NCBI GenBank assembly: GCA_964016885.1
Contig: OZ024740.1
Coordinates: forward strand, 334,924,001-334,988,000
From: Eledone cirrhosa
Lineage: Eukaryota
Direction: 5' to 3'
Length of the DNA stretch: 64,000 nt
In this document: positions 1-64,000 of the stretch, in pieces
How positions within the stretch are numbered: position 1 is the first letter of the stretch
How the letters are laid out: each line of letters opens with the position of its first letter
Notes under the pieces: generated by a model
Databases searched by the model: none
The model's input: only the letters and a program-made list of their open reading frames with translations
What the model was told of the DNA's origin: nothing
Program-made: the position numbers and the translations under genes

Positions 1-233
1 TACAAAAAAGGATGAGAAACTTGATGAATTATTTCCTTTAAGACTGTGACAATATATGTTAAGAAATATGATTGTATACGCTGTGGGCGTAAGAAATAAC
101 TGAATATTTGAAAATATTTCCACTAGTAAGATTTTTGACATAGGAAATGTTTTCTCTCAAAGACAGTAAATGAGTAATATATTCAAATCTTTACTAAAAC
201 CCCTATAATATATTTTGAGCATACCTAAATTAA

Positions 234-395
234 TTGTTTCTATTTTTGGCACAACGCCAGCAATTACCCAGTACATTACTGGTACTTTATTTTATCGAAC
301 CCGTAAGGATGAAAAGTGGGATTTGAACTCAGATCATTAAGAGATGTAACTCAATTCTTCAAAGCATGGTGTCCGACTCTCTACCGATACAGCCA
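234..395 (-). mobile_element. tRNA-derived SINE, same family, with internal deletion
   Basis: ggcacaacgccagcaatt...ggtactttattttatcgaacccgtaaggatgaaa...gggatttgaactcag. Confidence 0.75.
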
Positions 396-453
396 AATGC
401 GTGTTGAACATATGATGTGTGAAATATTTTCAAGATGACTTGCATGTTGAGAT

Positions 454-16370: not shown

Positions 16371-17883
16371 CTCACGAGTGTATTTCACTCGTGATAAAGA
16401 ATGAAATATATATTATATATTTTTGTCTAAAATAACAAAAAATTGTAATTTTTTTTTCCATAAAATCTATAAGTATATTTCATAAAAGCCTGATGGAATT
16501 ATGTTTTTAACGTAAACAGAAATGGCATTATTATCATTTATTTCAAGGTGGTGTTTGAAATAAATCATAAATATTGAAAACAATTATATATTTGAAATGC
16601 GTGTTAAATTCTATATATCCAGATAAGAGCTGTGTGTTGATTTCTTTTTACCGACAGCTTCATACAGAAACACAGTTTAACGGAACAATAATTGTAGTGT
16701 AGATATCCACACCCTAAATAATGTTCAGTTTTTCAATATGTTTCCGGTGCACCAATCTTATCTAATAATGAAAATCTCTCATGTCGAAAATGATGTATCA
16801 GCGCATTTGCGGGAAACAATTGAACTAGCTTCTGTTTGAATTAACGTGTGAAATAGTCAAGAATTCAATAGGCATGTGTGCCATTACTACACCCCACACA
16901 GAATGAGTGTCACATAGTTTTACAACTCTGCAATTTGAATCATATTTCAACCTATCCGAAAGACTTGCAAACCGTTTCTTTGTATCGTATTTCTCTTACG
17001 AGTTCTGAGAACTAACAAATTAACTTGCTACAGAATATTTTCTTTATTTTGTTTTTTTCCATAAAACAGGAAGTCATAATCTGAATAGAGGTGGAATGCC
17101 CGATTCGTGTGTGTATTGATATTGCAGTGTTTGTCAACAACCCTTTCGTTATTTCCAAATCCAGCCAAGAGAACCCATGACTATCAACCTTCAAGTGTCG
17201 ATTGAATAGAAGTATCATTGACAAAGGACGATTTAGTCGAGTAAATCTAACCGCGAATTCATAGCCATGTATGTGTATTAGATTTCGTTATTATATAGGG
17301 AAACATTACTAACATGTCTATACTGAAACGAATACAATATTTAGAAATGGGATTTCAATTCATATTTAATATGCTAATTTAATAAGCCTTTTTACTTGTG
17401 TCATTGCGCCCACTTTCATTTTTATTCTGCAAATCAATCTTTGTTATTTTCTTTCTTCATATGTCAGCATTTAAATAGGACTAAGTAGTAATCAACAATG
17501 TTTAGTAAGAAAAATGCAACATATCAATACGCAAATTCACTGATCTTGTCTTGTGTATCACTACAATGGTAATTATAAGAAAAAAAACGTATGTAATAAG
17601 GAAATATAAATTATTTATCTACATATATTACAATAATAATTGAAGATTTATCAGCCTTGCAAGCATTTCAATGATTTCAGTGATATATGAATTATAGTGT
17701 TAATAGAAATTTCTTTAAGAATTATGAAAAATCCTGTTACTTAATTTTTATTGAATATTATTGAATTACATTCCAAGGAAAACTATCTTCTAAATGTTTA
17801 TTTTTTGGTGTACGTACACACGGATGCATTTGGTTTGATTTTATTGTCTTTCACATAGAGAACTATATTGTATATTCTAATAA

Positions 17884-18066
17884 TTGTTTCTACTTTCGGC
17901 ACAAGGCCAGAAATTATCCAGTGCATTACTGGTACTTTATTTTATCGACCCCGTAAGGATGAAAGGCAAAGTTAACCTCGACAGGATTTGAACTCAGAAT
18001 GGCAAGGGCCGTAACTATGCTGGAAAACATGTCCGATCCTCTACCGATACTGCAAATTCACCGCCC
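17884..18066 (-). mobile_element. tRNA-derived SINE, same family
   Basis: High similarity to 46871-47059. Confidence 0.85.
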
Positions 18067-18728
18067 TAATAATACATAATTATCATACTTACTAGAAGAT
18101 AAAACGGTTAAAAATAATCTGTACCTTTCTTAGGTATAAACCTACTTCCTAGTAAAACCAAGTCATTTCACCACTCTTAGATAGGATACATCTCAGTATA
18201 CGGTAATACGCAAAACTCTAATTTTCGCAGATAGAAACCAACACTATCGTAAGATGTTAGGATTCCTAAATTATGTGTCCCCACAATTTACAAGACTAAT
18301 ATATCCATATGGTAGAATACGTTTGAAAGAAAATCTCAAATGAAACTTTTTAGTATTGAACATTCACATGAATCAAATTGTGATGCGTGTAATATTCTGA
18401 CATCAATTACCCAAGTGCAATGACTTCATGGCCGTGTTTTATTTGACTATCTGATAATCATCAATGTTACATCTATATTCGTTTTATAATAATGATAGTC
18501 ATTATAGCTGAAGTAATATAATAACATAAAGAGTCGATATTTTGAAGATTGTATAAGTGTATGCAATTACATTGTGTGATATTTGTAAATATTATTTTCT
18601 GAACAGAACTTGTGAAAATCAAAGTTATTTTCATGAAATTTCATTACATTCTGAAAGAAATTGGTGTTAATATAAGAACACATTCAACAATAGACATTAA
18701 TGAAAATATCTAAAAAAGCATAACAAGA

Positions 18729-30104: not shown

Positions 30105-31289
30105 CACCGTGTAACAAAAAAAAAATTATTTCTCTGTTCCTGGCTTGTAATCACTTTTTTGTGTTGCTTAGGTCCCAAATAAATAAAAAAAAGTGCTATT
30201 AAGCAGTTAAAAGTTTGGGTTTGTAAAATTCTAAGCTATTCACTAGAATTATTTGTATGGTGGATTTTACGTTGTATGTAAGTTTAATTTCCTTATGTTA
30301 AATAATTTTTTTATATATGTTTTAGGTTAAATTAAAATTATAAAATAAAGAGTAATACCTAAAGAAAATTATAAAAGTGCAATAAAGTATAAAATTGTTA
30401 AAAACTGGATTAAAGAGATTTATTGATACTGGATTTTCGCACCCTGAATAAAGGGTAAGTTGTGTTTTAAGCATTTGTCTCCAGGATGAAGCAGTGGAAC
30501 TTGGTCAAGGAGGAAGTGCAGGTGACAAGTCTGAGAAGTCGACACCAAACTTTCTCAGGTTTTTACACTCTTAGGGATAGCCTCTGCTTCTGCCATGACG
30601 TGCCTGGACTGTTTGACGTTATTGGGTGCCGTTTGTGCCCAATGAGTGGCGGCTATTCATAGACAGCTCCACCACAAGTTTGAAGGCTGTTAAGGGCTTC
30701 CTGGGCAACTACAGAGCTGAAAACTACCAGCAACTGGTGCAGGATCTAATAAAGGCTTTTGGCGCCATGTGATGCAGGATGTCGCTTAAACTCCATATTC
30801 TGGACGCTCACCTGGAAAAATTCAAGGACAATATGGGCGCCTACTCAGAAGAACAAGGCGAACGGTTCCATCAAGATGTGAAAGAGATAGAGCGGAGGTA
30901 CCAGGGCCACTATAATTACAAAATGATAGGGGACTATATCTGGGGGCTAGTGCGGGAATGCGACCTGGACTACAACCGCAAATCCAGGAAATCCAGTCGT
31001 TTCTGACGTCTATAAGTTGCTTTATAAGTGTTATTTGGTTTACTTGTTTGCTTTTGAGAAGCTTGTGTAATAAAACAAAATATATACTCTGTTGATTTAA
31101 TTATATGAACTGATAATATTTTTTTTTAAATATGTGTTTTCTTGAAAAATATGAAAATTTCGAAATATGAAACTGCTGACAACAAACCCAAACTTCTGAT
31201 TAAATATTAGTATTTTCCTAGAATAATGGGATATACCAAACCAGGAAATAACATTTAGAACCGGGGAACAATAGAAATGTTACACGGTG
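30105..31289 (+). mobile_element. Internally deleted DNA transposon, probably Chapaev (CMC) type
   Basis: Terminal inverted repeats CACCGTGTAACA / TGTTACACGGTG. Internal remnants EWRLFIDSSTTSLKAV (~30643-30690) fused to KGFLGNYRAENY...MSLKLHILDAHLEKFKDNMGAYSEEQGERFHQD...RYQG (to 31006), with an in-frame stop. The Chapaev assignment is from recalled motifs and CAC...GTG ends; TSD is not clean. Confidence 0.8.
30779..31006 (+). pseudogene. C-terminal transposase fragment (GERFHQD motif)
   Basis: ORF-track peptide MSLKLHILDAHLEKF...GERFHQDVKEIERRYQG; upstream frame interrupted by TGA and a deletion. Confidence 0.8.
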
Positions 31290-31654: not shown

Positions 31655-32726
31655 TTATCAACTAATTTCATAGGGAGAAAAAGCAAATTTTACACATAAT
31701 ACTAACTATATTGAAATTTAATGTGTTGAATCTATTTTAGCAACATATAATGTGTATGTAGAGATGGATATGGTAGTGAAATACACTCAATACTCAGCAT
31801 TCTCTCAGATAAATACATAAAGTAAATATAATTTATGTCTAAGCGGAAACATAATTTCAGAGTTAATTACGCCAGGATGACCCATGTATATATATATATA
31901 TATATATACATTTATTTATGTTTTGTGGTTCTCCAATGGGTAGAACTGGCCATTCCGTTTAGTAACCATGATGTAACCGTAAGTACTCTACGTTATGCAA
32001 CTTGTCCCCCGTAGATGTTGAATCCCGTGGCTGGTACGGAGTGAAATGTTTTTTTTTTTATTAAAGCAACATAGGGCTGGAATGGAAATATCCCTTTAAA
32101 GTTTTAATGTTGCATGATATCATCAGGTGCGGATTGCATAATATCTTACTCAGTTAAAGAAATTACGGCAAAAACAGATGGCCCGCGGATTTGGTGTTAT
32201 TGCTGCGGCAGAGCATTTCCGAATATGCATTGACGTGTGTGTTATTCGGAGAAATATATATATAGTGTTTTTGGCAACATTAATCGTTTAAAGGGATATT
32301 TCCATCCCGGTCGTCCATTGATTGAAATACTTTATCTATATTATTCACACACATAATCAACTCGATGGAAATAAGATGGAAGCCAGAAGGTAATTAAGTA
32401 TTGTTACGAAACAATCGGCAACTGTGCTCCTATCAACGCCTGCTATTTTCTTGTATGAATATAATTATTTAATCACTTTGAGAACTGAATACAAAGATGT
32501 TAATAAGATTATCCGTAAAGTATATGACAAATACTTACTAAACCTTTATATCACGTTATTCTCTTTTTTTTACTTGGGCGCCATGAATATTAGGGAGAAA
32601 TTAGGTATAGAAATATATATTGTCATTTAACGATATGAAACAGGAAGTCTAGTTGAAATTAGCTAAAAATTATATTCACATCACTATAGGTATTTAATAT
32701 AAGATTTCGTAAGTATTTACTAATAA

Positions 32727-33062
32727 TGGTTTCTGCTTTAGGCACAAGGCCAGCAATTACCCAGTACATTACTGGTACTTTATTTTATCGACCCCGTAAG
32801 GATGAAAGGCAAAGTTAACCTCGGCGGGATTTGAACTCAGACTGTAAAGGGACGTAACTATGCTAGAAAGCATGGCGTCCAACCCTCTACTGATACTGCC
32901 AATTCACCCACCATTTTAGTATTCAAGTATTTACTAATAACTGTTCCTACTTTAGGCACAAGGCCAGCAATTACCCAGTGCATTACTGGTACTTTATTTT
33001 ATCGACCCTGTAAGGATGAAAGGCAAGTCAACCTCGGTGGGATGTTAACTCAGATCGTAAAG
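32727..33062 (-). mobile_element. Two tandem SINE copies (32727-32912 full, 32941-33062 truncated)
   Basis: Family consensus twice; AAGTATTTACTAATAA-like sequence repeated at each junction. Confidence 0.85.
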
Positions 33063-38145: not shown

Positions 38146-38700
38146 TTCTACTATAAGCACAAGCCCAGCAATTTTGCAGGAAGAGATATTCGAATAAATC
38201 GACGTAAGGATGAAAGGCAGACTTAACATCAGCGTGATATAATTCGTACCCTCTGTATCATACTCTTCATGTGACTTCTGTATGACTAATCAAGAAAATA
38301 TTACTATTAATATTAATTAGCAGAATCGGTAGAGCATCGGACGTAATGCTTCGCAGCTTAGAGTTAGCGCTCTTTATGATCTAAGTTCAAATCCCATTGA
38401 GGCCGATAAAATAAAGTACCAATCACGCACTGGGGTCGATTTAATAGACTTTCCCCTCCCCCAAAATTGCTAGCCTTGTTCCTATATAAGAAACCATTAT
38501 TACTATTATTATTATTGTGGATTGGCAGTATCGGTAGAGGGTCGGACATGCTTTCCAGCATAGTTACGTCCCTTTACGATCTGAGTTCAAATCCCGCCGA
38601 GGTTGACTTTGCCTTTCATCCTTACGGGGTCGATAAAATAAAAGTACCAGTAATGCACTGGTTAATTGCTGGCCTTGTGCCTAAAGTAGAAACACTTATT
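37915..38700. mobile_element. SINE cluster: two decayed minus copies (~37915-38240) and two plus copies (38316-38497, 38517-38697)
   Basis: Plus copy 38517-38697 shows TGGCAGTATCGG A-box-like and GAGTTCAAATCCC B-box with a (TTA)n tail. Confidence 0.75.
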
Positions 38701-38701
38701 A

Positions 38702-38736
<35 letters not shown>

Positions 38737-39604: not shown

Positions 39605-39745
39605 CTTGTTTTTTCTTGACCTCATTTTTGAATGAAATAAGTATTCCAATAGAGCAACGAGCATAGCGGCTACCAGGCCCGCTATGAGGATATGAAATAT
39701 TCCGGACACATTACTCAATCGAAGTGCACTGGTCTTTGAAGATTC
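39605..39745 (-). CDS. Exon of the same glutamate receptor: pre-M4 linker, M4 transmembrane helix and start of cytoplasmic tail
   Basis: Acceptor tttctttgcag|GAA. 47 codons ESSKTSALRLSNVSGIFHILIAGLVAAMLVALLEYLFHSKMRSRKNK resemble vertebrate GluA [36 protein letters not shown]. Joins in phase 0 to the 47990-48095 exon. Putative donor AAG|gcaagt; read-through would stop at 39563. Confidence 0.92.
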
Positions 39746-41344: not shown

Positions 41345-41706
41345 AGGATACATAGATAGATAAAATGACAGATAGATAAATTATATATGTTTGTATATAT
41401 ATATATATATATAAAAACAAATAACGAAACGAAATTAAATTTCGTTTCGTTTGTAACTCACTTTTGTATGACTGACGCTTAAACAATTAAGTTAAAAATG
41501 TACATCTACATATGCATACTGAAATACTAGTATGCATATGAATACACACACGTATACATATGTAGATGTAACAAGTCTTTCACTGGTTACTTTACTGTGA
41601 GTAACCCAGCTATTCTGTATGTAAACACACAGACAAACCGGTTTTTAGAGTCATAATGGTTGTCGAGGAAACACCTTTCCTCTATTCTCCAGAAAGCCAG
41701 ATAAGG

Positions 41707-41751
41707 AATATTGAACTAGTTTCGTTGTTGTTACAACTCATCAGCAATATT
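41707..41751 (-). ncRNA. Minimal type I hammerhead ribozyme (copy 1)
   Basis: Minus strand: AATATTG CTGATGA GTTGT-aaca-ACAAC GAAA C-TA-G T T CAATATT, giving stem I 7 bp, intact core, stem II 5 bp, palindromic ACTAGT stem III and a GUU cleavage triplet. Confidence 0.85.
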
Positions 41752-42173
41752 TACCTATCTACCGGCCTTTCTGGAGAATCGTAAAAGCACATATCGTTAT
41801 ATGCTTTTTCTATGAAAATTAGTAGTGGGCAGACTAATTTGCATAGAGTGTGAGTACGCACCGGTTCAGCGGAGACGATAAAAACAAATAACGAAACGAA
41901 ATTAAATTTCGTTTCGTTTGTAACTCACTTTTGTATGACTGACGCTTAAACAATTAAGTTAAAAATGTACATCTACATATGCATACTGAAATACTAGTAT
42001 GCATATGAATACACACACGTATACATATGTAGATGTAACAAGTCTTTCACTGGTTACTTTACTGTGAGTAACCCAGCTATTCTGTATGTAAACACACAGA
42101 CAAACCGGTTTTTAGAGTCATATTGGTTTTCGAGGAAACACCTTTCCTCTATTCTCCAAAAAGCCAGACAAGG

Positions 42174-42218
42174 AATATTGAACTAGTTTCGTTGTTGTTA
42201 CAACTCATCAGCAATATT
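42174..42218 (-). ncRNA. Minimal type I hammerhead ribozyme (copy 2)
   Basis: Same 45-nt motif as copy 1, one repeat unit downstream. Confidence 0.85.
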
Positions 42219-42593
42219 TACCTATCTACCGGCCTTTCTGGAGAATCGTAAAAGCACATACAGAATAGCTGGGTTACTCACAGTAAAGTAACCAGTGAAA
42301 GACCTGTTACATCCACATATGTATACGTGTGTGTATTCATATGCATACTAGTATTTCAGTATGCATATGTAGATGTACATTTTTAACTTAATTGTTTAAG
42401 CGTCAGTCATACAAACGTGAGTTACAAACGAAACGAAATTTAATTTCGTTTCGTTATTTGATTTTATCGTCTCCGCTGAACCGGTGCGTACTCACACTCT
42501 ATGCAAATTAGTCTGCCCACTACTAATTTTCATAGAAAAAGCATATAACGATATGTGCTTTTACGATTCTCCAGAAAGGCCGGTAGATAGGTA

Positions 42594-42638
42594 AATATTG
42601 CTGATGAGTTGTAACAACAACGAAACTAGTTCAATATT
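42594..42638 (+). ncRNA. Minimal type I hammerhead ribozyme (copy 3, inverted unit)
   Basis: Plus strand aatattg ctgatga gttgt aaca acaac gaaa ctagt t caatatt read directly. Confidence 0.85.
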
Positions 42639-43787
42639 CCTTGTCTGGCTTTCTGGAGAATAGAGGAAAGGTGTTTCCTCGAAAACCAGTATGACTCTAA
42701 AAACCGGTTTGTCTGTGTGTTTACATACAGAATAGCTGGGTTACTCACAGTAAAGTAACCAGTGAAAGACTTGTTACATCTACATATGTATACGTGTGTT
42801 TATTCATATGCATACTAGTATTTCAGTATGCATATGTAGATTTACATTTTTAACTTAATTGTTTATATATATATATATATATATATATAAGTGTATGCGT
42901 GTGTGTATGTGTGTGTGGGTGGGTGTGTGGGTGTGTGGGTGTGGGTGTGTGGGTGTGCGTGTGCGTGCGTGTGTGTGGGTATGTGTGCGTGTGTGTATTT
43001 GTATCGCTGAGAGTGGAATCAAGCTCTTCGCTCTATATATGCATATTTTATTACTACGTGAGATACTAGTTCATTTGAAAAATGAAGAATTAAGTAAAAT
43101 TAATATGATGAATTCTTCTGACTAACAATAAAGTCTTTGTATTCAAAAGTAATTATATTAATTTCATTTACTTTAACTATAATTATTTCCTATTTTTTCA
43201 ATAGGATACAACTCTGATGAAAAATTCTCTGGTGGAGCTATGTAGAGTTAACGCTACAATATCTTCAACAGACCGAATAATATCAAGAAACCATCCAGAA
43301 ACACTAATGTTTGTAATAATATTATTATTTTTGTTATATTTTTAATATTTTGCTCTTAATAATAATACTTCGTTTCATAAACAGAGCTAGATTCAAAATG
43401 TTGAACTGAAATTCTCACGCCTCGGCAGATATAGTTCACAACATTTATACAACGTCGGTACCAGTCTGTCTGCAGGTTAAATAAATATTTATGGGTCATA
43501 CCATATATTGTAATAGGGATAAATTTTCTGACATATAGGTTAATATATTAGTGAATTATCTGGCGTTTCTTAACCACATATAATATCTTTAAAAATATAT
43601 ATATATATATATCTTTAGTATACATATTTCCTTTGACTTTCAATGTTATATGTAATTTACTTCCAATAATTTCATTTATGGTGTGTTTCAAGTAGGATTT
43701 ACTATGAAAACTCATACGCAGAACATTACTGTGACACCACTCTAATTTATGTGGAACAAAACATTTCCGGCTTTATATATACATACG

Positions 43788-45216: not shown

Positions 45217-45272
<56 letters not shown>

Positions 45273-45337
45273 AGATGAAATCAAAAATGCAACTGGAGTC
45301 TTATTTTAAAAAAATATATATATATATTTATTTGGTT

Positions 45338-45375
45338 CCTTTACCGGTTTCGCAGTTCTTCTGCTTTTCAAAAGG
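45338..45375 (-). ncRNA. Variant minimal hammerhead ribozyme with U3-A8 core (mirror copy)
   Basis: Exact reverse complement of 45421-45458 in the other arm of a fold-back element. Confidence 0.6.
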
Positions 45376-45420
45376 TGAGTTGAGATGGAGAAAAAACCAC
45401 AGACCCTCCATCTCAACTCA

Positions 45421-45458
45421 CCTTTTGAAAAGCAGAAGAACTGCGAAACCGGTAAAGG
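45421..45458 (+). ncRNA. Variant minimal hammerhead ribozyme with U3-A8 core
   Basis: CCTT TTGAAAA GCAG-aagaa-CTGC GAAA C-CG-G T A AAGG: stem I 4 bp, core UUGAAAA (C3G8 replaced by U3A8), stem II 4 bp, palindromic ACCGGT stem III, GUA triplet. Confidence 0.6.
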
Positions 45459-45628
45459 AACCAGATAAATATATATATATATTTTTTTAAAAATAAGTCT
45501 CCAGTTGCATTTTCGATTTCATCTCTTTTTCTTTATACTTTCACTCGTGTAGGACACCTCGGTTATTTTTCATTTTGTAAAAAAAACCTCACTTTCTAGT
45601 ATATATATATATATATATTTATTTATTT

Positions 45629-45778
45629 ATTTATTAAAATAACAGATTAAAGTTTAAGCAAAGAATCGGTGCTTTACCCTTAACGTGATCTTCTGAAACT
45701 CTGTGCGTTTCAGAGGATCCCGTTAAGGGTGAAGGCAGCGATTCTTTGCTTAAACTTTAATCTGTTATTTTAATAAAT
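45629..45778. repeat. Fold-back inverted repeat, ~70-bp arms; one arm recurs at ~55675-55748
   Basis: atttattaaaataacagattaaagtttaagcaaagaatc...ctgaaac pairs with gtttcag...gattctttgcttaaactttaatctgttattttaataaat. Confidence 0.85.
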
Positions 45779-45863
45779 ATTTGCTCTACGGTTCATATAT
45801 ATCTGATATATATTTATCCTTATCGAGCCCTCTTTGGATTTTAGTCTTCAAATTTATTATTAT

Positions 45864-46102: not shown

Positions 46103-46219
46103 TTTAATATAGATGAGATTCTACAGGACTAGAACTGTTTCATTCTTTAGAAATCATCAGGAATCTGATGATTTCTAAAGAATGAAGTTTTAATCCTGTT
46201 GAATCTCATCTATATTAAA
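46103..46219. repeat. Fold-back inverted repeat centred on a hammerhead-like core
   Basis: tttaatatagatgagattc...aaatcatcag-gaat-ctgatgattt...gaatctcatctatattaaa. Left arm on the minus strand reads CTGATGA...GAAAC...GTC. Confidence 0.8.
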
Positions 46220-46870
46220 ACTGTTATACTCTGCTATGTATTGAGTACCTTATTTCCTGTGGTTACCTCCGATTCAACCCGGAATAACGTACGTATATAT
46301 ATGTTTATATAGTTCAAAGACAGACAAAATCAATGACAGAGATGCAAAACAGAAAAGTGAATTAGATTCAGGCTTAGAATGTGGAAATCGTGATTTTGTC
46401 GGATATAAATCCTTCTTCGGGAAATAGAGATTTCAGGGAGAAGAAAAGTTGGAACAACAGAGTTTGAAAGAAAAGTTTTAAGAAGGCTGGGCATGGTAGG
46501 TGAGTAGTAGCGCGTACGGATATGGGGGCTCGAGTTGGAGACTCCATGTATCATTATAAATTTTAGCTGGAATCATTCCTACAGATAATGGCTAAAGGTT
46601 TTATTTTCAATTATTATGAAAATATCCATCCCCAAGCTCATATTCGAAATTAGGACAGAAACTTTTGGGGATCGAAACATTTCGTTATTTAATGTTAGTC
46701 TGCTTAATATGCTTAGCTCTTATATAGCTACCACAAAATAAACGCACTATCTAACATATTCGAGGAATCACCACAATAAAATACATCTTTATCAAATAAC
46801 ACATTAGTTATTGTAACTAAGGACGCACTTTGTGGTTTTTGTTGGTTTTCAATCAGTGATGTAAAATAAT

Positions 46871-47059
46871 TGTTTCTACTTTTGGCACAAGGCCAGCAAT
46901 TATCCCAGTGTATTACTGGTACTTTATTTTATCGACCCTGTAATGGTGAAAGGCAAAGTTAACCTCGGCGGGATTTGAACTCAGATCATAAAGGGAGGTA
47001 ACTCTATGCTTCAAAGCATGGCGTCCGACCCTCTACCGATACTGCCAATCCACCGCCCT
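46871..47059 (-). mobile_element. Full-length tRNA-derived SINE with ~19-bp target-site duplication
   Basis: Body with GAGTTCAAATCCC B-box and GCCTTTCA..GGGTCGATAAAATAAAGTACCAG central domain. ATCAGTGATGTAAAATAAT at 46852-46870 and 47060-47078. Confidence 0.9.
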
Positions 47060-47989
47060 ATCAGTGATGTAAAATAATAAGTCACTAACATGTGAAGAAG
47101 ATATATAGTGGCCTGGGTTAGGAACACATCTATTAAAAACACTCATATTATTGTAAGAAAATATAGAACTGTTTTCGTTTGTAATCTCTTTTATTGAATT
47201 ATTAATAAATTATATCTGATGGTTACTTTCCTATACTATTGTGTGATAGGGAAGCAGTAACCGATATTAGGGTTAACACCATGTTAGAGCTTATCTAAGG
47301 AGAATATCTACTTCCCACCGGAGTTGAATACATAATTACAACACACTCATCAATACCTAATGTTATACAGCTTCAATTGCTTCAGCCTGGTGAACCCTGC
47401 AGTACTTACGCGCTCCGTATAAATGCCTGAATTATTAATTCGAGCAAATTAATTCTAATCAAGCACACATATGATCAAAACATATACCCGCCTTGTCCAC
47501 ACTATTTTTATTTACAGAAATAGTGTATTGACGATTATAATATTTTATGCCACAATTTAAAGGCGGTATGTTTTGTATAATTAGATGTCAGAGAAAATAC
47601 GATCTCGACCAATTTCCATGTATGGCTTTCACGAAATCACTAGTAGGTTCAATGTCTGTTTCAGCGCATCTCCCTCACCGACCTCCGGGGAAACGCATTC
47701 TCCATCCTGTTGGCCGGGACCTAGAAGAGGAAGGTATGCTAGTTGGCGGTGGAGGATACTCGTTCAGGAGTCACTTCAACAAGTAAAGTACATTTACATA
47801 TGAAGTAGACTATAAATATCAGTCACCTGTATATTCCATCCACCACATATTATGTTACATATGATTTTTCACCTGAGTAATTAACAGGTGCTTGTCAAGT
47901 ACACTAATCATTCGTTTTCATAGCCTCCCAAGTATTTGAGGGAGCTTAAAAATATATTTTGTTCGTTACGATATGAAAGTTAAACTTAC

Positions 47990-48095
47990 TTTATCTGGCT
48001 GTCCACACTGTCCTTTGTCATACCACCATTTTTTCTCCAGTTTATGTAATTCTCCCTTTTCTCGTAGCACGAGAACAGCGAGATTTATTGGCATC
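47990..48095 (-). CDS. Exon of an AMPA-like ionotropic glutamate receptor (GluA/GRIA-like): C-terminal part of ligand-binding S2 lobe
   Basis: Reverse complement reads tttttag|G ATG CCA ATA AAT CTC...GAT AAA|gtaagt. Translation (x)[35 protein letters not shown] matches the AMPA-receptor motif (V/I)NLAVLKL-E-G-L-KL--KWWYDKGEC. 106 nt, canonical AG/GT, ends in phase 0. Not in the ORF track because it is short. Confidence 0.95.
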
Positions 48096-51395: not shown

Positions 51396-51413
51396 ATACA
51401 AATAATAATAATA

Positions 51414-51605
51414 ATTGTTTCTACATTTGGCACAACGCCAGCAATCACCAGTGAATTACTGGTACTTTATTTTATCGAACCCCGTAAAGATGAAAGGCAA
51501 AGTTGACCTCGGCGGGATTTGAACTCAGAATGGCAAGGGCCGTAACTCTATGCGTCAAAGCATGGTGCCCGACCCTTTACCCATACTGCCAATCCACCGC
51601 CCTTA

Positions 51606-51659
<54 letters not shown>

Positions 51660-51846
51660 TGTTTCTACTTTTGGCACAAGGCCAGCAATTAGCCAGTGTA
51701 TTACTGGTACTTTATTTTATCGACCCCGTAAGGATGAAAGGCAAAGTTAACCTCGGCGGGATTTGAACTCAGACCATAAAGGGCCGTAACTCTTTGCTGC
51801 AAAGCATGGCATCCGACTCTCTACCGATACTGCCAATCCAACGCCC
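51414..51846 (-). mobile_element. Two tandem SINE copies (51414-51602, 51659-51846) separated by (TAA)n
   Basis: Family consensus twice. Confidence 0.85.
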
Positions 51847-51888
<42 letters not shown>

Positions 51889-52565
51889 TCTACAAGGAGG
51901 AGGCTAGCCCACTGTGCAGGATCTGTGGAGAGAGAGAGGAGACTGTGGCTCACATTGTGTCCGAGTGTAAACACCTAGCCCAGACCCACTATAAGGGCTG
52001 GAGACACGATGTGATGGGCAGGGTGATCCACTGGCACCTGTGCAAAGTAAACAATCTACCACATTCTGAGAAATGGTATGAGCATAGGCCAGAGGCGGTG
52101 ATGGAGAACAGTCAGGTGAAGGTGCTGTGGGATTTTAGGATACAGACGGACAAAAAACTGGAACACAATAGACCTGACCTGGTGGTTGTGGACAAAGAAA
52201 GAAAAAAGATCGTGCCTGATTGTGGATGTGACCTGCCCGTTCGACACGAGAGTGCAAGAGAAGGAGAGGGAGAAAATTAACCGATACCAGGACCTAAAGT
52301 GGGAGGTGAAAAGGATTTGGAACTTCCATGAAGTCAAAGTGATCCCGATTGTCATAGGCGCACTGGGGACTATCTCCAAAGGTTTCCAGGGATGGTTAAA
52401 GAAAATCGGCCCCTTCACGCTTTTTGGAACGCTTCAAAAGGCATGCTTGCTTGGAACAGCAAGAACCCTCCGATACGTCCTGAATATCTGAGGCTGCAGG
52501 TAGTGGCTTGATATTCAATCCAACGGACTTTGCAGTTAACCAACATCAATGACTGAGATTCAAGG
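51889..52565 (+). mobile_element. 5'-truncated non-LTR retrotransposon with restriction-like endonuclease (Dong/R4-like) in (TAA)n
   Basis: Overlapping ORFs give HIVSEC..RHD..IHWHLC..LWDFRIQTD..NRPDLVVVDK / CLIVDVTCPFD..EKINRYQDL..VIPIVIGALG, i.e. CCHC finger plus PD-(D/E)xK RLE, with a frameshift near 52205. (TAA)n on both sides. Confidence 0.85.
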
Positions 52566-52600: not shown

Positions 52601-52776
52601 TTGTTTCTAATTTTGGCACAAGGCCGCAATTACCCAGTACATTACTGGTACTTTATTTTATCGACCCCGTAAGGATGAAAGGAAAAGTTGACCTCGGCGG
52701 GATTTGAACTCAGAATGGAAAAGGCCGTAACTCTATGCGTCAAAGCATGACGTCCGACCCTCTACCGATACTGCCA
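52601..52776 (-). mobile_element. tRNA-derived SINE followed by (GAA)n
   Basis: Family consensus; 5' end replaced by the GAA repeat at 52777-52871. Confidence 0.85.
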
Positions 52777-53766: not shown

Positions 53767-54066
53767 GGGTCAGACGCCATGCTTTCCAGCATAGTTACGT
53801 CTCTTTACGATCTGAGTTCAAATCCCGCCGAGGTTGACTTTGCCTTTCATTCTTACGGGGTCGATAAAATAAAGTACCAGTAATGCAGTGGATAATTGCT
53901 GGCCTTGTGCCTAAAGTAGAAACAATTATTTCATTACGGCCCTTGCCATTCTGAGTTCAAATCCCGCCGAGGTTAACTTTGCCTTTCATCCTTACGGGGT
54001 CGATAAAATAAGGTACCAGTAATGTACTAGTTAATTGCAGGTCTTGTGCCAATAGTAGAAACAACT
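53767..54066 (+). mobile_element. Two tandem 5'-truncated SINE copies
   Basis: ctgagttcaaatcccgccgaggtt.actttgcctttcat.cttacggggtcgataaaata appears twice. Confidence 0.85.
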
Positions 54067-54107
54067 GTTTCATTATTGCAAGCTAGAATTGAGTATTCCC
54101 CTCCTAT

Positions 54108-54684: not shown

Positions 54685-55010
<326 letters not shown>

Positions 55011-55104: not shown

Positions 55105-55319
55105 ATATATATATATATATATATTACATATATATTCATTCGCACCGTTTCCTTTCGCTATATGTCTCTCCACCACTCCCCTACACACCTTTTGAACTCT
55201 CACCTGAAGAAGGGCCTATGCCCTAAACGTCGTCCCCCACCTACCCCCCACTCTCCTGAGCGTGAATTTAATAAACATTTGTCGTACTGCCTCTCTGTTC
55301 TGTCCCTGTTCAATTTTTC

Positions 55320-62256: not shown

Positions 62257-62830
<574 letters not shown>

Positions 62831-63467
62831 ATATATATATGGGGGTGGCGTATTATCGTATTTTTATTACATATATATATATGTTTTACCGGCGTGTTGA
62901 GTCTAATATAGATTGTTGACTAACAATTTCTAAGAGTGAACATTTGATCCTTGTACCACTCAAATTTGAACCTCTAATTGGAAATAAATATCATTCAGAT
63001 TTTTTATACGAACATAACAATTCAGTTTTCGGTAATCAAATGACTAATGTTATAATCAGACTCTTAATAAAGTCTTATATAGATGCATAAAAGTAATTGG
63101 CATTCTATATTTCGTGAATATATAATGATTTATTTGCCCATGTGTAAGACCTCCATATTGTCAAACTATACACCATCTAGTCAGCATATTTCTGTTATTT
63201 AGCAGGAATCCTAAACTTAATCATATCAAAAGCTGTGAAGTTTCGTTGTCAATATGAACGCAATAATTATGTTGCTCATTGATTTATTGCAACACAGCCA
63301 CGATCAGCAGTTATATAATATTCATATAAATGAGCCAGAACAATGTTATTTATTGCTTTCCCATGACATACAACAATCCACTGTAGGATTAATACTAACT
63401 AGAATACTTCCATAAGAAATACGAAATGACAATTCATTCTGAACAATCGTTATGGTGATGCCCAAAC

Positions 63468-63547
<80 letters not shown>

Positions 63548-64000
63548 ATTGGTGCTCTGAAATAACAATGTATACATGAATGTATGTATAGTATATTTGG
63601 CAATATACCGTATGTTTAATTTTAAAACCTTTCGAAGATCATACGCTATCTGTTTTTAAGAAGTAAGTGACATAGTCACTACTTTAAAACCGATAGCGTA
63701 TGGTCTTCAAATTTTTTTTAATTAAACATACGGTATATTGCCAAATAGTATATATATATATGTTCAATTTCAATGTACTAAATCTGAACAAACACAAATT
63801 TAAAACAAACGAGAGTGGGGAATAAAATTTGGGATTACTTCCATGACTTCATCTTAATGCGTACCATGCATCTTAAAAGAAACATTAGCTATAATCCAAA
63901 TGCTAGACATAGTAAGACGTCTTATTTTATTAAATAAATTGGATATGAATTCTATGCAATATCCCAGACAGAGATATAATGTTACAGCGTGCTTTCATGT

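Follow-up and report, generated by a model that had tools for sequence, protein, structure and literature searches.

A tandem-plus-inverted hammerhead repeat in an octopus glutamate receptor intron, with ribozymes predicted to be blocked by its own antisense arm

An intron of an AMPA-type glutamate receptor gene in the octopus Eledone cirrhosa holds a head-to-head composite of a 467-bp hammerhead repeat. The composite is very probably a single and recent insertion, probably neutral, of a hammerhead retroelement that is non-autonomous and was moved in trans by a Penelope-like RT/GIY-YIG protein; its ribozyme cleavage is predicted to be slow or absent. The window referred to below is the whole 64,000-nt stretch of DNA that was analysed.

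Architecture of the composite insertion and its host gene

Two arms of 610 nt each, 41480-42089 and 42256-42865, align as an inverted repeat across a 166-nt spacer with 9 mismatches and no gaps (98.5% identity; longest perfect run within the 610-bp pairing, 181 bp). The alignment returned exactly the coordinates that an earlier note on this DNA had assigned to the repeat, and the pair is the longest and closest-matched among the 38 inverted pairs of at least 60 nt in the 64-kb window, simple repeats excluded. The arms stand, and the element begins at 41411, not at 41480. Its direct part, 41411-42260, comprises 1.82 units of the 467-bp repeat in ribozyme sense on the minus strand. Tandem Repeats Finder, presented with only 1.8 units, did not list the 467-bp period. 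The features are given below.

41411..42865, no strand assigned: whole composite of the 467-bp hammerhead repeat (non-LTR retrozyme-like), head-to-head, both 3′ ends facing outward into (TA)n
41411..41877, minus strand: unit U1, one full 467-bp period, ribozyme-sense on minus, that is, sense to the host gene
41411..41479, minus strand: one-sided, tail-like 69-nt 3′ extension, containing a 13-bp hairpin and unpartnered in the 610-bp register
41691..41762, minus strand: type I hammerhead copy 1 (ACUAGU at 41715-41720; predicted cut after 41714, GUU; Rfam HH9 39.8 bits, E 3e-8)
41878..42260, minus strand: unit U2, 383 bp, 5′-truncated at the junction, 98.96% identical to U1
42158..42229, minus strand: type I hammerhead copy 2, in the 166-nt loop (ACUAGU at 42182-42187; predicted cut after 42181)
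42256..42260, no strand assigned: junction microhomology ACATA, 5 nt
42256..42865, plus strand: inverted arm, 1.31 units, ribozyme-sense on plus, antisense in the pre-mRNA and transcribed first
42583..42654, plus strand: type I hammerhead copy 3, whose pre-mRNA complement is an antisense blocker of copies 1 and 2
62386..62831, minus strand: solo copy of the same repeat family, 446 bp, inside (TA)n
62595-62666, minus strand: hammerhead copy 4, carried within the solo copy
47990..48095, minus strand: upstream host exon, 106 nt (AMPA-type receptor residues 779-814)
39605..39745, minus strand: downstream host exon, M4 region (residues 815-861)

The ACATA motif is common to both parents of the inversion junction and was found on both sides of it, as the earlier note had described; joins with at least 5 nt shared make up 0.84% of all possible joins of a unit to its reverse complement. 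The core of hammerhead copy 2 (42181-42211) likewise falls inside the loop where it had been placed. That account of arms and loop holds, and it omits the solo copy and two further pairing registers. Register 2 joins 41947-42260 to 42552-42865 (314 bp, 98.7%) and covers hammerhead copy 2, and register 3 joins 41411-41622 to 42256-42467. The 3′ ends of the solo copy and the inverted arm agree within 1-2 nt, a coincidence that we estimate at about 1% by chance, and the left end of the composite extends 69 nt past this common 3′ end. All four outer ends of the composite and the solo copy lie in (TA)n, with a 2-3 nt overlap at the ends of the composite.

Both host exons lie on the minus strand and are 100% identical to Octopus bimaculoides glutamate receptor 2 isoform X2 (7 matches among 63 candidates), which bears out the earlier claim that the receptor pre-mRNA carries ribozyme copies 1 and 2 in sense orientation. 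The upstream exon resembles the end of the AMPA-receptor ligand domain; in Pfam, the M4 exon gave only a weak Lig_chan match (E 0.063) and the 36-codon exon gave none. The intron between them, 47989-39746, spans 8,244 nt, and the predicted cuts at 42181 and 41714 are 2,435 and 1,968 nt upstream of the 3′ splice site. No other exons of the receptor protein were found in the 64-kb window, the remainder of which is probably intron of the same gene.

The 106-nt exon (48095-47990) sits at what we take to be the position of the flip/flop exon in vertebrate AMPA receptors, just after the R/G site, and a second flip/flop-like copy of it was looked for in the window and not found. Loss of the 106-nt exon from the mRNA would cause a frameshift. 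For the M4 exon, the donor appears to be GC (GCAAGT, 39604-39599, minus strand) and not GT. The solo copy is 98% complementary to inverted-arm positions 42418-42862 over 445 bp, and the two, 19.5 kb apart, flank the 106-nt exon. Circularisation or skipping of the exon through this pairing was ranked low, since partners for the arm exist locally, at distances of 166-291 nt, and the exon has SINE pairs closer to it on either side.

A SINE-like repeat of 150-250 nt recurs in both orientations across the window (226-396, 17870-18074, 32711-33062, 38299-38703, 46864-47060, 51401-51847, 52602-52775 and 53767-54077), and several inverted pairs of it flank the two receptor exons. Other remnants are a frameshifted C-terminal LINE ORF fragment inside (AAT)n (51780-52491, plus strand; zinc motif, zf-RVT E 0.004), presumably of the Dong/R4-like kind with a restriction-like endonuclease, and a short coding-like fragment (30753-31006, plus strand) that resembles a transposase remnant by eye, with no convincing Pfam match.

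Ribozymes, repeat unit and insertion geometry

Identical 31-nt hammerhead cores occur four times in the window (41714-41744, 42181-42211 and 62618-62648 on the minus strand, 42601-42631 on the plus strand), a number reached in 0 of 100 shuffles. A broader hammerhead descriptor recovered the same four copies and none in any of 20 shuffled windows. Stem I has 7 bp, an internal loop and a further 7 bp, the core reads CUGAUGA and stem II has 5 bp; stem III is only 1-2 bp, built from the palindrome ACUAGU, and the cleavage site is GUU (U17). Loops 1 and 2 retain HH9-like bases. GUU is a weaker hammerhead cleavage site than GUC. It is counted among the cleavable NUH sites (PMC3138052).

Against the Rfam Hammerhead_HH9 model the four copies score 38.6-39.8 bits (E 3e-8 to 1e-6), below the cut-off of 52 bits, and membership in HH9 is ruled out by this score. 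At the gathering cut-off Rfam gave 0 matches in the 64-kb window, and what it matched to miRNA and DUF3800-I at loose E-values is noise from hairpins. An exact scan for the core in bacterial and archaeal genomes gave 0 matches, which is uninformative for an animal repeat. All four cores (124 bases) are intact against about 1.1 changes expected, a difference not significant either way, and the intact cores are no sign of selection. A decayed minimal-hammerhead relic of a different family lies at 55205-55232 on the plus strand, with the core and a 4-bp stem II present and one core base changed; it sits in a short insert that is flanked by (TA)n and partly duplicated in tandem, and is probably a second Penelope-type remnant.

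Non-LTR retrozymes are short, non-coding, AT-rich tandem units with type I hammerheads (PMC7229834), and they have been argued to be non-autonomous derivatives of Penelope-like elements (bioRxiv 10.64898/2026.07.22.740005). Here the 467-bp period carries a complete type I hammerhead in two consecutive units (copies 1 and 2), the tandem form that marks a retrozyme. The unit codes for no protein, stop-free runs reaching at most 57 aa in sense and 62 aa in antisense, and its GC content is 35%, where retrozymes lie below 50%; an autonomous Penelope-like element is ruled out, there being no ORF for RT and GIY-YIG. Folded as a circle, the cut-to-cut monomer reaches -151.9 kcal/mol against -93.8 ± 6.1 kcal/mol for shuffled sequences (z -9.5, 0/100 as low). 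The repeat family occurs at two independent loci in 64 kb, and a target-site duplication, which in retrozymes exceeds 4 bp where there is one, is unreadable here, every end being inside (TA)n.

With metazoan non-LTR retrozymes, as these two sources describe them, the repeat shares a weak palindromic helix III, a highly self-paired monomer circle, one hammerhead per unit and solo as well as dimer forms; Xenopus copies are likewise intronic in 42-44% of cases. It differs from them in length, 467 bp against the usual range of 150-450 bp, and in its U17 (GUU) site and inverted arm. The composite passes the sequence tests for a non-LTR retrozyme with Penelope-type insertion geometry. In the open-access literature we found no description of an octopus retrozyme family like the 467-bp unit, and the family is apparently undescribed so far.

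Penelope-like insertions are recognised by a partial tandem, an inverted 5′-truncated copy, a one-sided tail and a bias towards microsatellites (PMC8557442, PMC8969392), and hammerhead pairs on opposite strands, 100-700 bp apart, were noted in 2014 (PMC4209133). The composite resembles insertions of Naiad, Hydra and Poseidon (PMC8557442, PMC11167929, PMC4209133) in having a partial tandem with an adjacent inverted 5′-truncated copy, a one-sided 3′ extension, fixed 3′ ends, a (TA)n microsatellite target at 4 of 4 outer ends and a hammerhead within the repeat. Unlike Penelope-like elements, the octopus unit lacks an RT/GIY-YIG ORF, and its extension is 69 nt long as compared to their 30-40 bp tail. 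The supplement of PMC8557442 lists (TA)n as the target of the octopus families Naiad_Obim and Hydra-1_Obim. Three short exact motifs of the family gave 0 matches in that supplement, and no helper element was identified. The Hydra-1_Obim hammerhead differs in sequence from that of the 467-bp unit, and the motif and hammerhead comparisons gave no sequence link to a named octopus Penelope-like element.

In purified form, a Penelope-like protein makes nicks in both strands of AT-rich DNA and extends them; it starts reverse transcription at two internal sites that set the tail, with uncleaved RNA as template (PMC11167929). From the geometry, the target, the shared 3′ end and the copy-private divergence, all of which are seen directly, we infer a corresponding series of steps. 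A helper protein would cut both strands of a (TA)n tract. Each 3′ end would serve as primer, with the 467-nt RNA, uncleaved and either multimeric or circular, as template, and reverse transcription would begin at one of two sites separated by 69 nt. The resulting two cDNAs, of 850 and 610 nt, would then be joined via ACATA at their 5′-truncated ends. Fixed internal start sites of the kind expected from PMC11167929 would explain why the inverted arm and the solo copy have the same 3′ end. The tandem-plus-inverted arrangement is the ordinary signature of a Penelope-like insertion, and therefore no host function is needed to account for it. The earlier reading of the locus as an inverted repeat was right about the structure and left out this usual signature; the insertion is not a purpose-built hairpin.

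Age and origin of the inverted arm

Among the copies there are 16 variable columns, and in none of them is a derived base common to two copies. One column (U1 equal to U2, arm different, solo copy absent) is unpolarisable, and in another the changes differ between U1 and U2. The composite carries 11 differences in 1,460 bases (about 0.75%, copy-private) and the solo copy 6 in 445. With an octopus calibration in which a distance of 0.09 equals 25 My (PMC13282606), these values give crude ages of about 2 My for the composite and about 4 My for the solo copy. The decay is star-like, which indicates that the units arose together at insertion; the copy-private differences point to a recent insertion and argue against assembly fold-back and against later duplication, which is disfavoured as a source of the units. 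No clear excess of ADAR-type bias was found in the copy differences over the 16 variable columns, which are too few.

A different route to the inverted arm has an outside chance of being correct: the first cDNA, or else a nascent DNA strand, may have snapped back from its 3′ end at 42260 onto 42085-42089 via ACATA and copied itself for 610 nt. Such a snap-back is expected to leave both a 5-nt microhomology and a short 166-nt loop, yet it gives no account of why the arm stops at the unit position at which the independent solo copy ends. It must also date from the insertion itself, since bases private to U1 and U2 are absent from the arm. Its consequences for the RNA are the same as those of the two-cDNA insertion that we favour. 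An assembly artefact is hardly credible: tandem and inverted Penelope-like structures trouble short-read assemblies (PMC8557442), but the arms here differ at 9 sites with private changes on either side, the arm terminates at the repeat family's own 3′ end, and unique flanks resume on both sides with the two exons keeping their order and strand.

Folding, cleavage and editing of the intronic RNA

The RNA was folded at 37 °C with a nearest-neighbour, equilibrium, nested model, which leaves aside pseudoknots, tertiary contacts, proteins and kinetics, and transcription was represented by 15 prefix folds of the minus-strand transcript. We agree with the earlier note that the inverted arm is made first on this strand. 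Once transcribed (prefix to 42170), copy 2 is wholly paired to the antisense arm, in a register that grows to 313 pairs and stays best to at least 41794. By the prefix to 41750 the 610-bp register wins. The full transcript has 608 pairs, with copy 2 in the loop and copy 1 blocked, its ACUAGU having an unpaired probability of about 0.001. The duplex proposed to sequester copy 1 is therefore correct as an end state, but the earlier prefixes pair the arm with copy 2.

A cis ribozyme dimer through ACUAGU had also been proposed. In the nested fold, forcing this double hammerhead adds +24 kcal/mol in the arm-less transcript and +436 kcal/mol when the arm is present; under the most lenient treatment, in which the ribozyme bubble alone is opened, the cost with the arm is +88 kcal/mol (from -112.3, -15.2, -30.0 and -9.2). 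A penalty of at least +88 kcal/mol makes cis-dimer cleavage unlikely in these models.

The folds suggest that the antisense arm, made first, would pair with copy 2 on emergence (up to 313 bp) and at equilibrium would move to the 610-bp register covering copy 1. One antisense arm faces two sense ribozymes, so that one would always be blocked, and the free one, with its 1-2 bp stem III and GUU site, would have no cis partner. By this modelling the insertion most likely switches off its own ribozymes; cleavage would be slow or absent and the intron would be spliced normally. Among the open-access papers listed by our searches, judged by title and the start of the abstract, none described an inverted arm blocking an intronic ribozyme or retrozyme.

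With a helix III of this kind, single hammerheads are poor cleavers whereas dimers cleave well (PMC7229834, PMC4209133); the rate for a mussel retrozyme monomer is about 0.1 per min (PMC7229834). By analogy with this rate, and given its HH9-like loop bases, the free copy may cut slowly by itself, and either the solo copy or RNA acting in trans could supply a cleavage partner. Splicing was reportedly not blocked when hammerheads cut introns slowly, whereas a fast HDV ribozyme did block it (PMC2995048).

Cutting of the intron by a free ribozyme at a useful rate, lowering or tuning receptor mRNA, is quite unlikely, even when all of its modes are taken jointly: copy 2 alone, a cis dimer during the register switch, the solo copy 20 kb upstream, or trans retrozyme RNA from other loci. 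The cores are intact, ACUAGU is palindromic, two sense copies are consecutive, and the double hammerhead folds at -30.0 kcal/mol as compared to -30.4 kcal/mol for two isolated monomers; moreover, an intronic ribozyme can affect its mRNA, as with CPEB3 (PMC10274809). Against these points, the arm imposes +88 to +436 kcal/mol on the double hammerhead, and a lone copy favours a core-paired fold (-15.2 kcal/mol vs -6.6 kcal/mol for the active form). The unblocked splicing reported around slow intronic hammerhead cuts (PMC2995048) also weighs against useful-rate cutting, as does the cleavage in vitro of only 1 of 9 predicted frog retrozyme dimers (bioRxiv 10.64898/2026.07.22.740005).

Like the co-opted intronic ribozymes HH9/HH10 and the HDV-like CPEB3 ribozyme, the insertion places a ribozyme in sense orientation within an intron of a neural gene, and HH9 is its best Rfam match. 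The HH9 and HH10 hammerheads are single-copy and conserved. The CPEB3 ribozyme is likewise single-copy and conserved (PMC10274809; co-opted intronic ribozymes are reviewed in PMC7761336). Unlike HH9 and CPEB3, the present ribozyme occurs as four near-identical copies at two loci in the window, and it belongs to a young repeat copy with neutral-looking decay, its own antisense blocker and a score under the HH9 cut-off.

The two arms contain 398 adenosines on the gene strand, in a duplex of 98.5% identity. The long duplex proposed earlier as an ADAR substrate agrees with the full-transcript fold, and long repeat duplexes are standard hyper-editing targets (PMC5625713). Hyper-editing is exceptionally high in octopus and a lizard Penelope is heavily edited (PMC5625713), and young repeats are the main hyper-editing target across animals (PMC9989829). 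By analogy, the duplex is likely edited by ADAR in a generic manner, with promiscuous A-to-I editing predicted as in other young inverted repeats. It lies more than 1.6 kb from either exon, and therefore site-specific recoding is not implied. As a long, near-perfect intronic duplex it is like Alu pairs and the lizard Penelope (PMC5625713), and it is unlike them in that both arms come from one insertion and that editing would hit the ribozyme core. Three other hairpins occur in the same intron (45269-45528, 45628-45779 and 46103-46219; self-complementarity 87-90%), and similar long hairpins lie at 54685-54872 and 63594-63747.

We think it very unlikely that the inverted arm acts as a conditional antisense lock, one that lets a sense double hammerhead survive in a neural AMPA-receptor intron with the editing level gating cleavage. 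If it did, ADAR hyper-editing, helicase action or a register switch would free copies 1 and 2 together, and a 467-nt circular RNA would be released in octopus neurons; genome-wide, sense intronic retrozyme dimers would be tolerated mainly when carrying an inverted arm. Against such a lock, editing would alter the catalytic adenosines too, and the insertion looks young and neutral.

As a probably neutral insertion, the composite is a clean single-locus case tying retrozymes to Penelope-type insertion chemistry, through its inverted copy, tail, (TA)n target and fixed 3′ end. It supports a retrozyme-Penelope link that had already been proposed and has lately been argued from phylogeny. It is also a small natural construct, with one antisense lock to two sense ribozymes, in which to ask if the ribozymes of elements within genes are silenced by inverted arms. 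Its importance would be much greater only if receptor output were altered by cleavage or editing at this locus.
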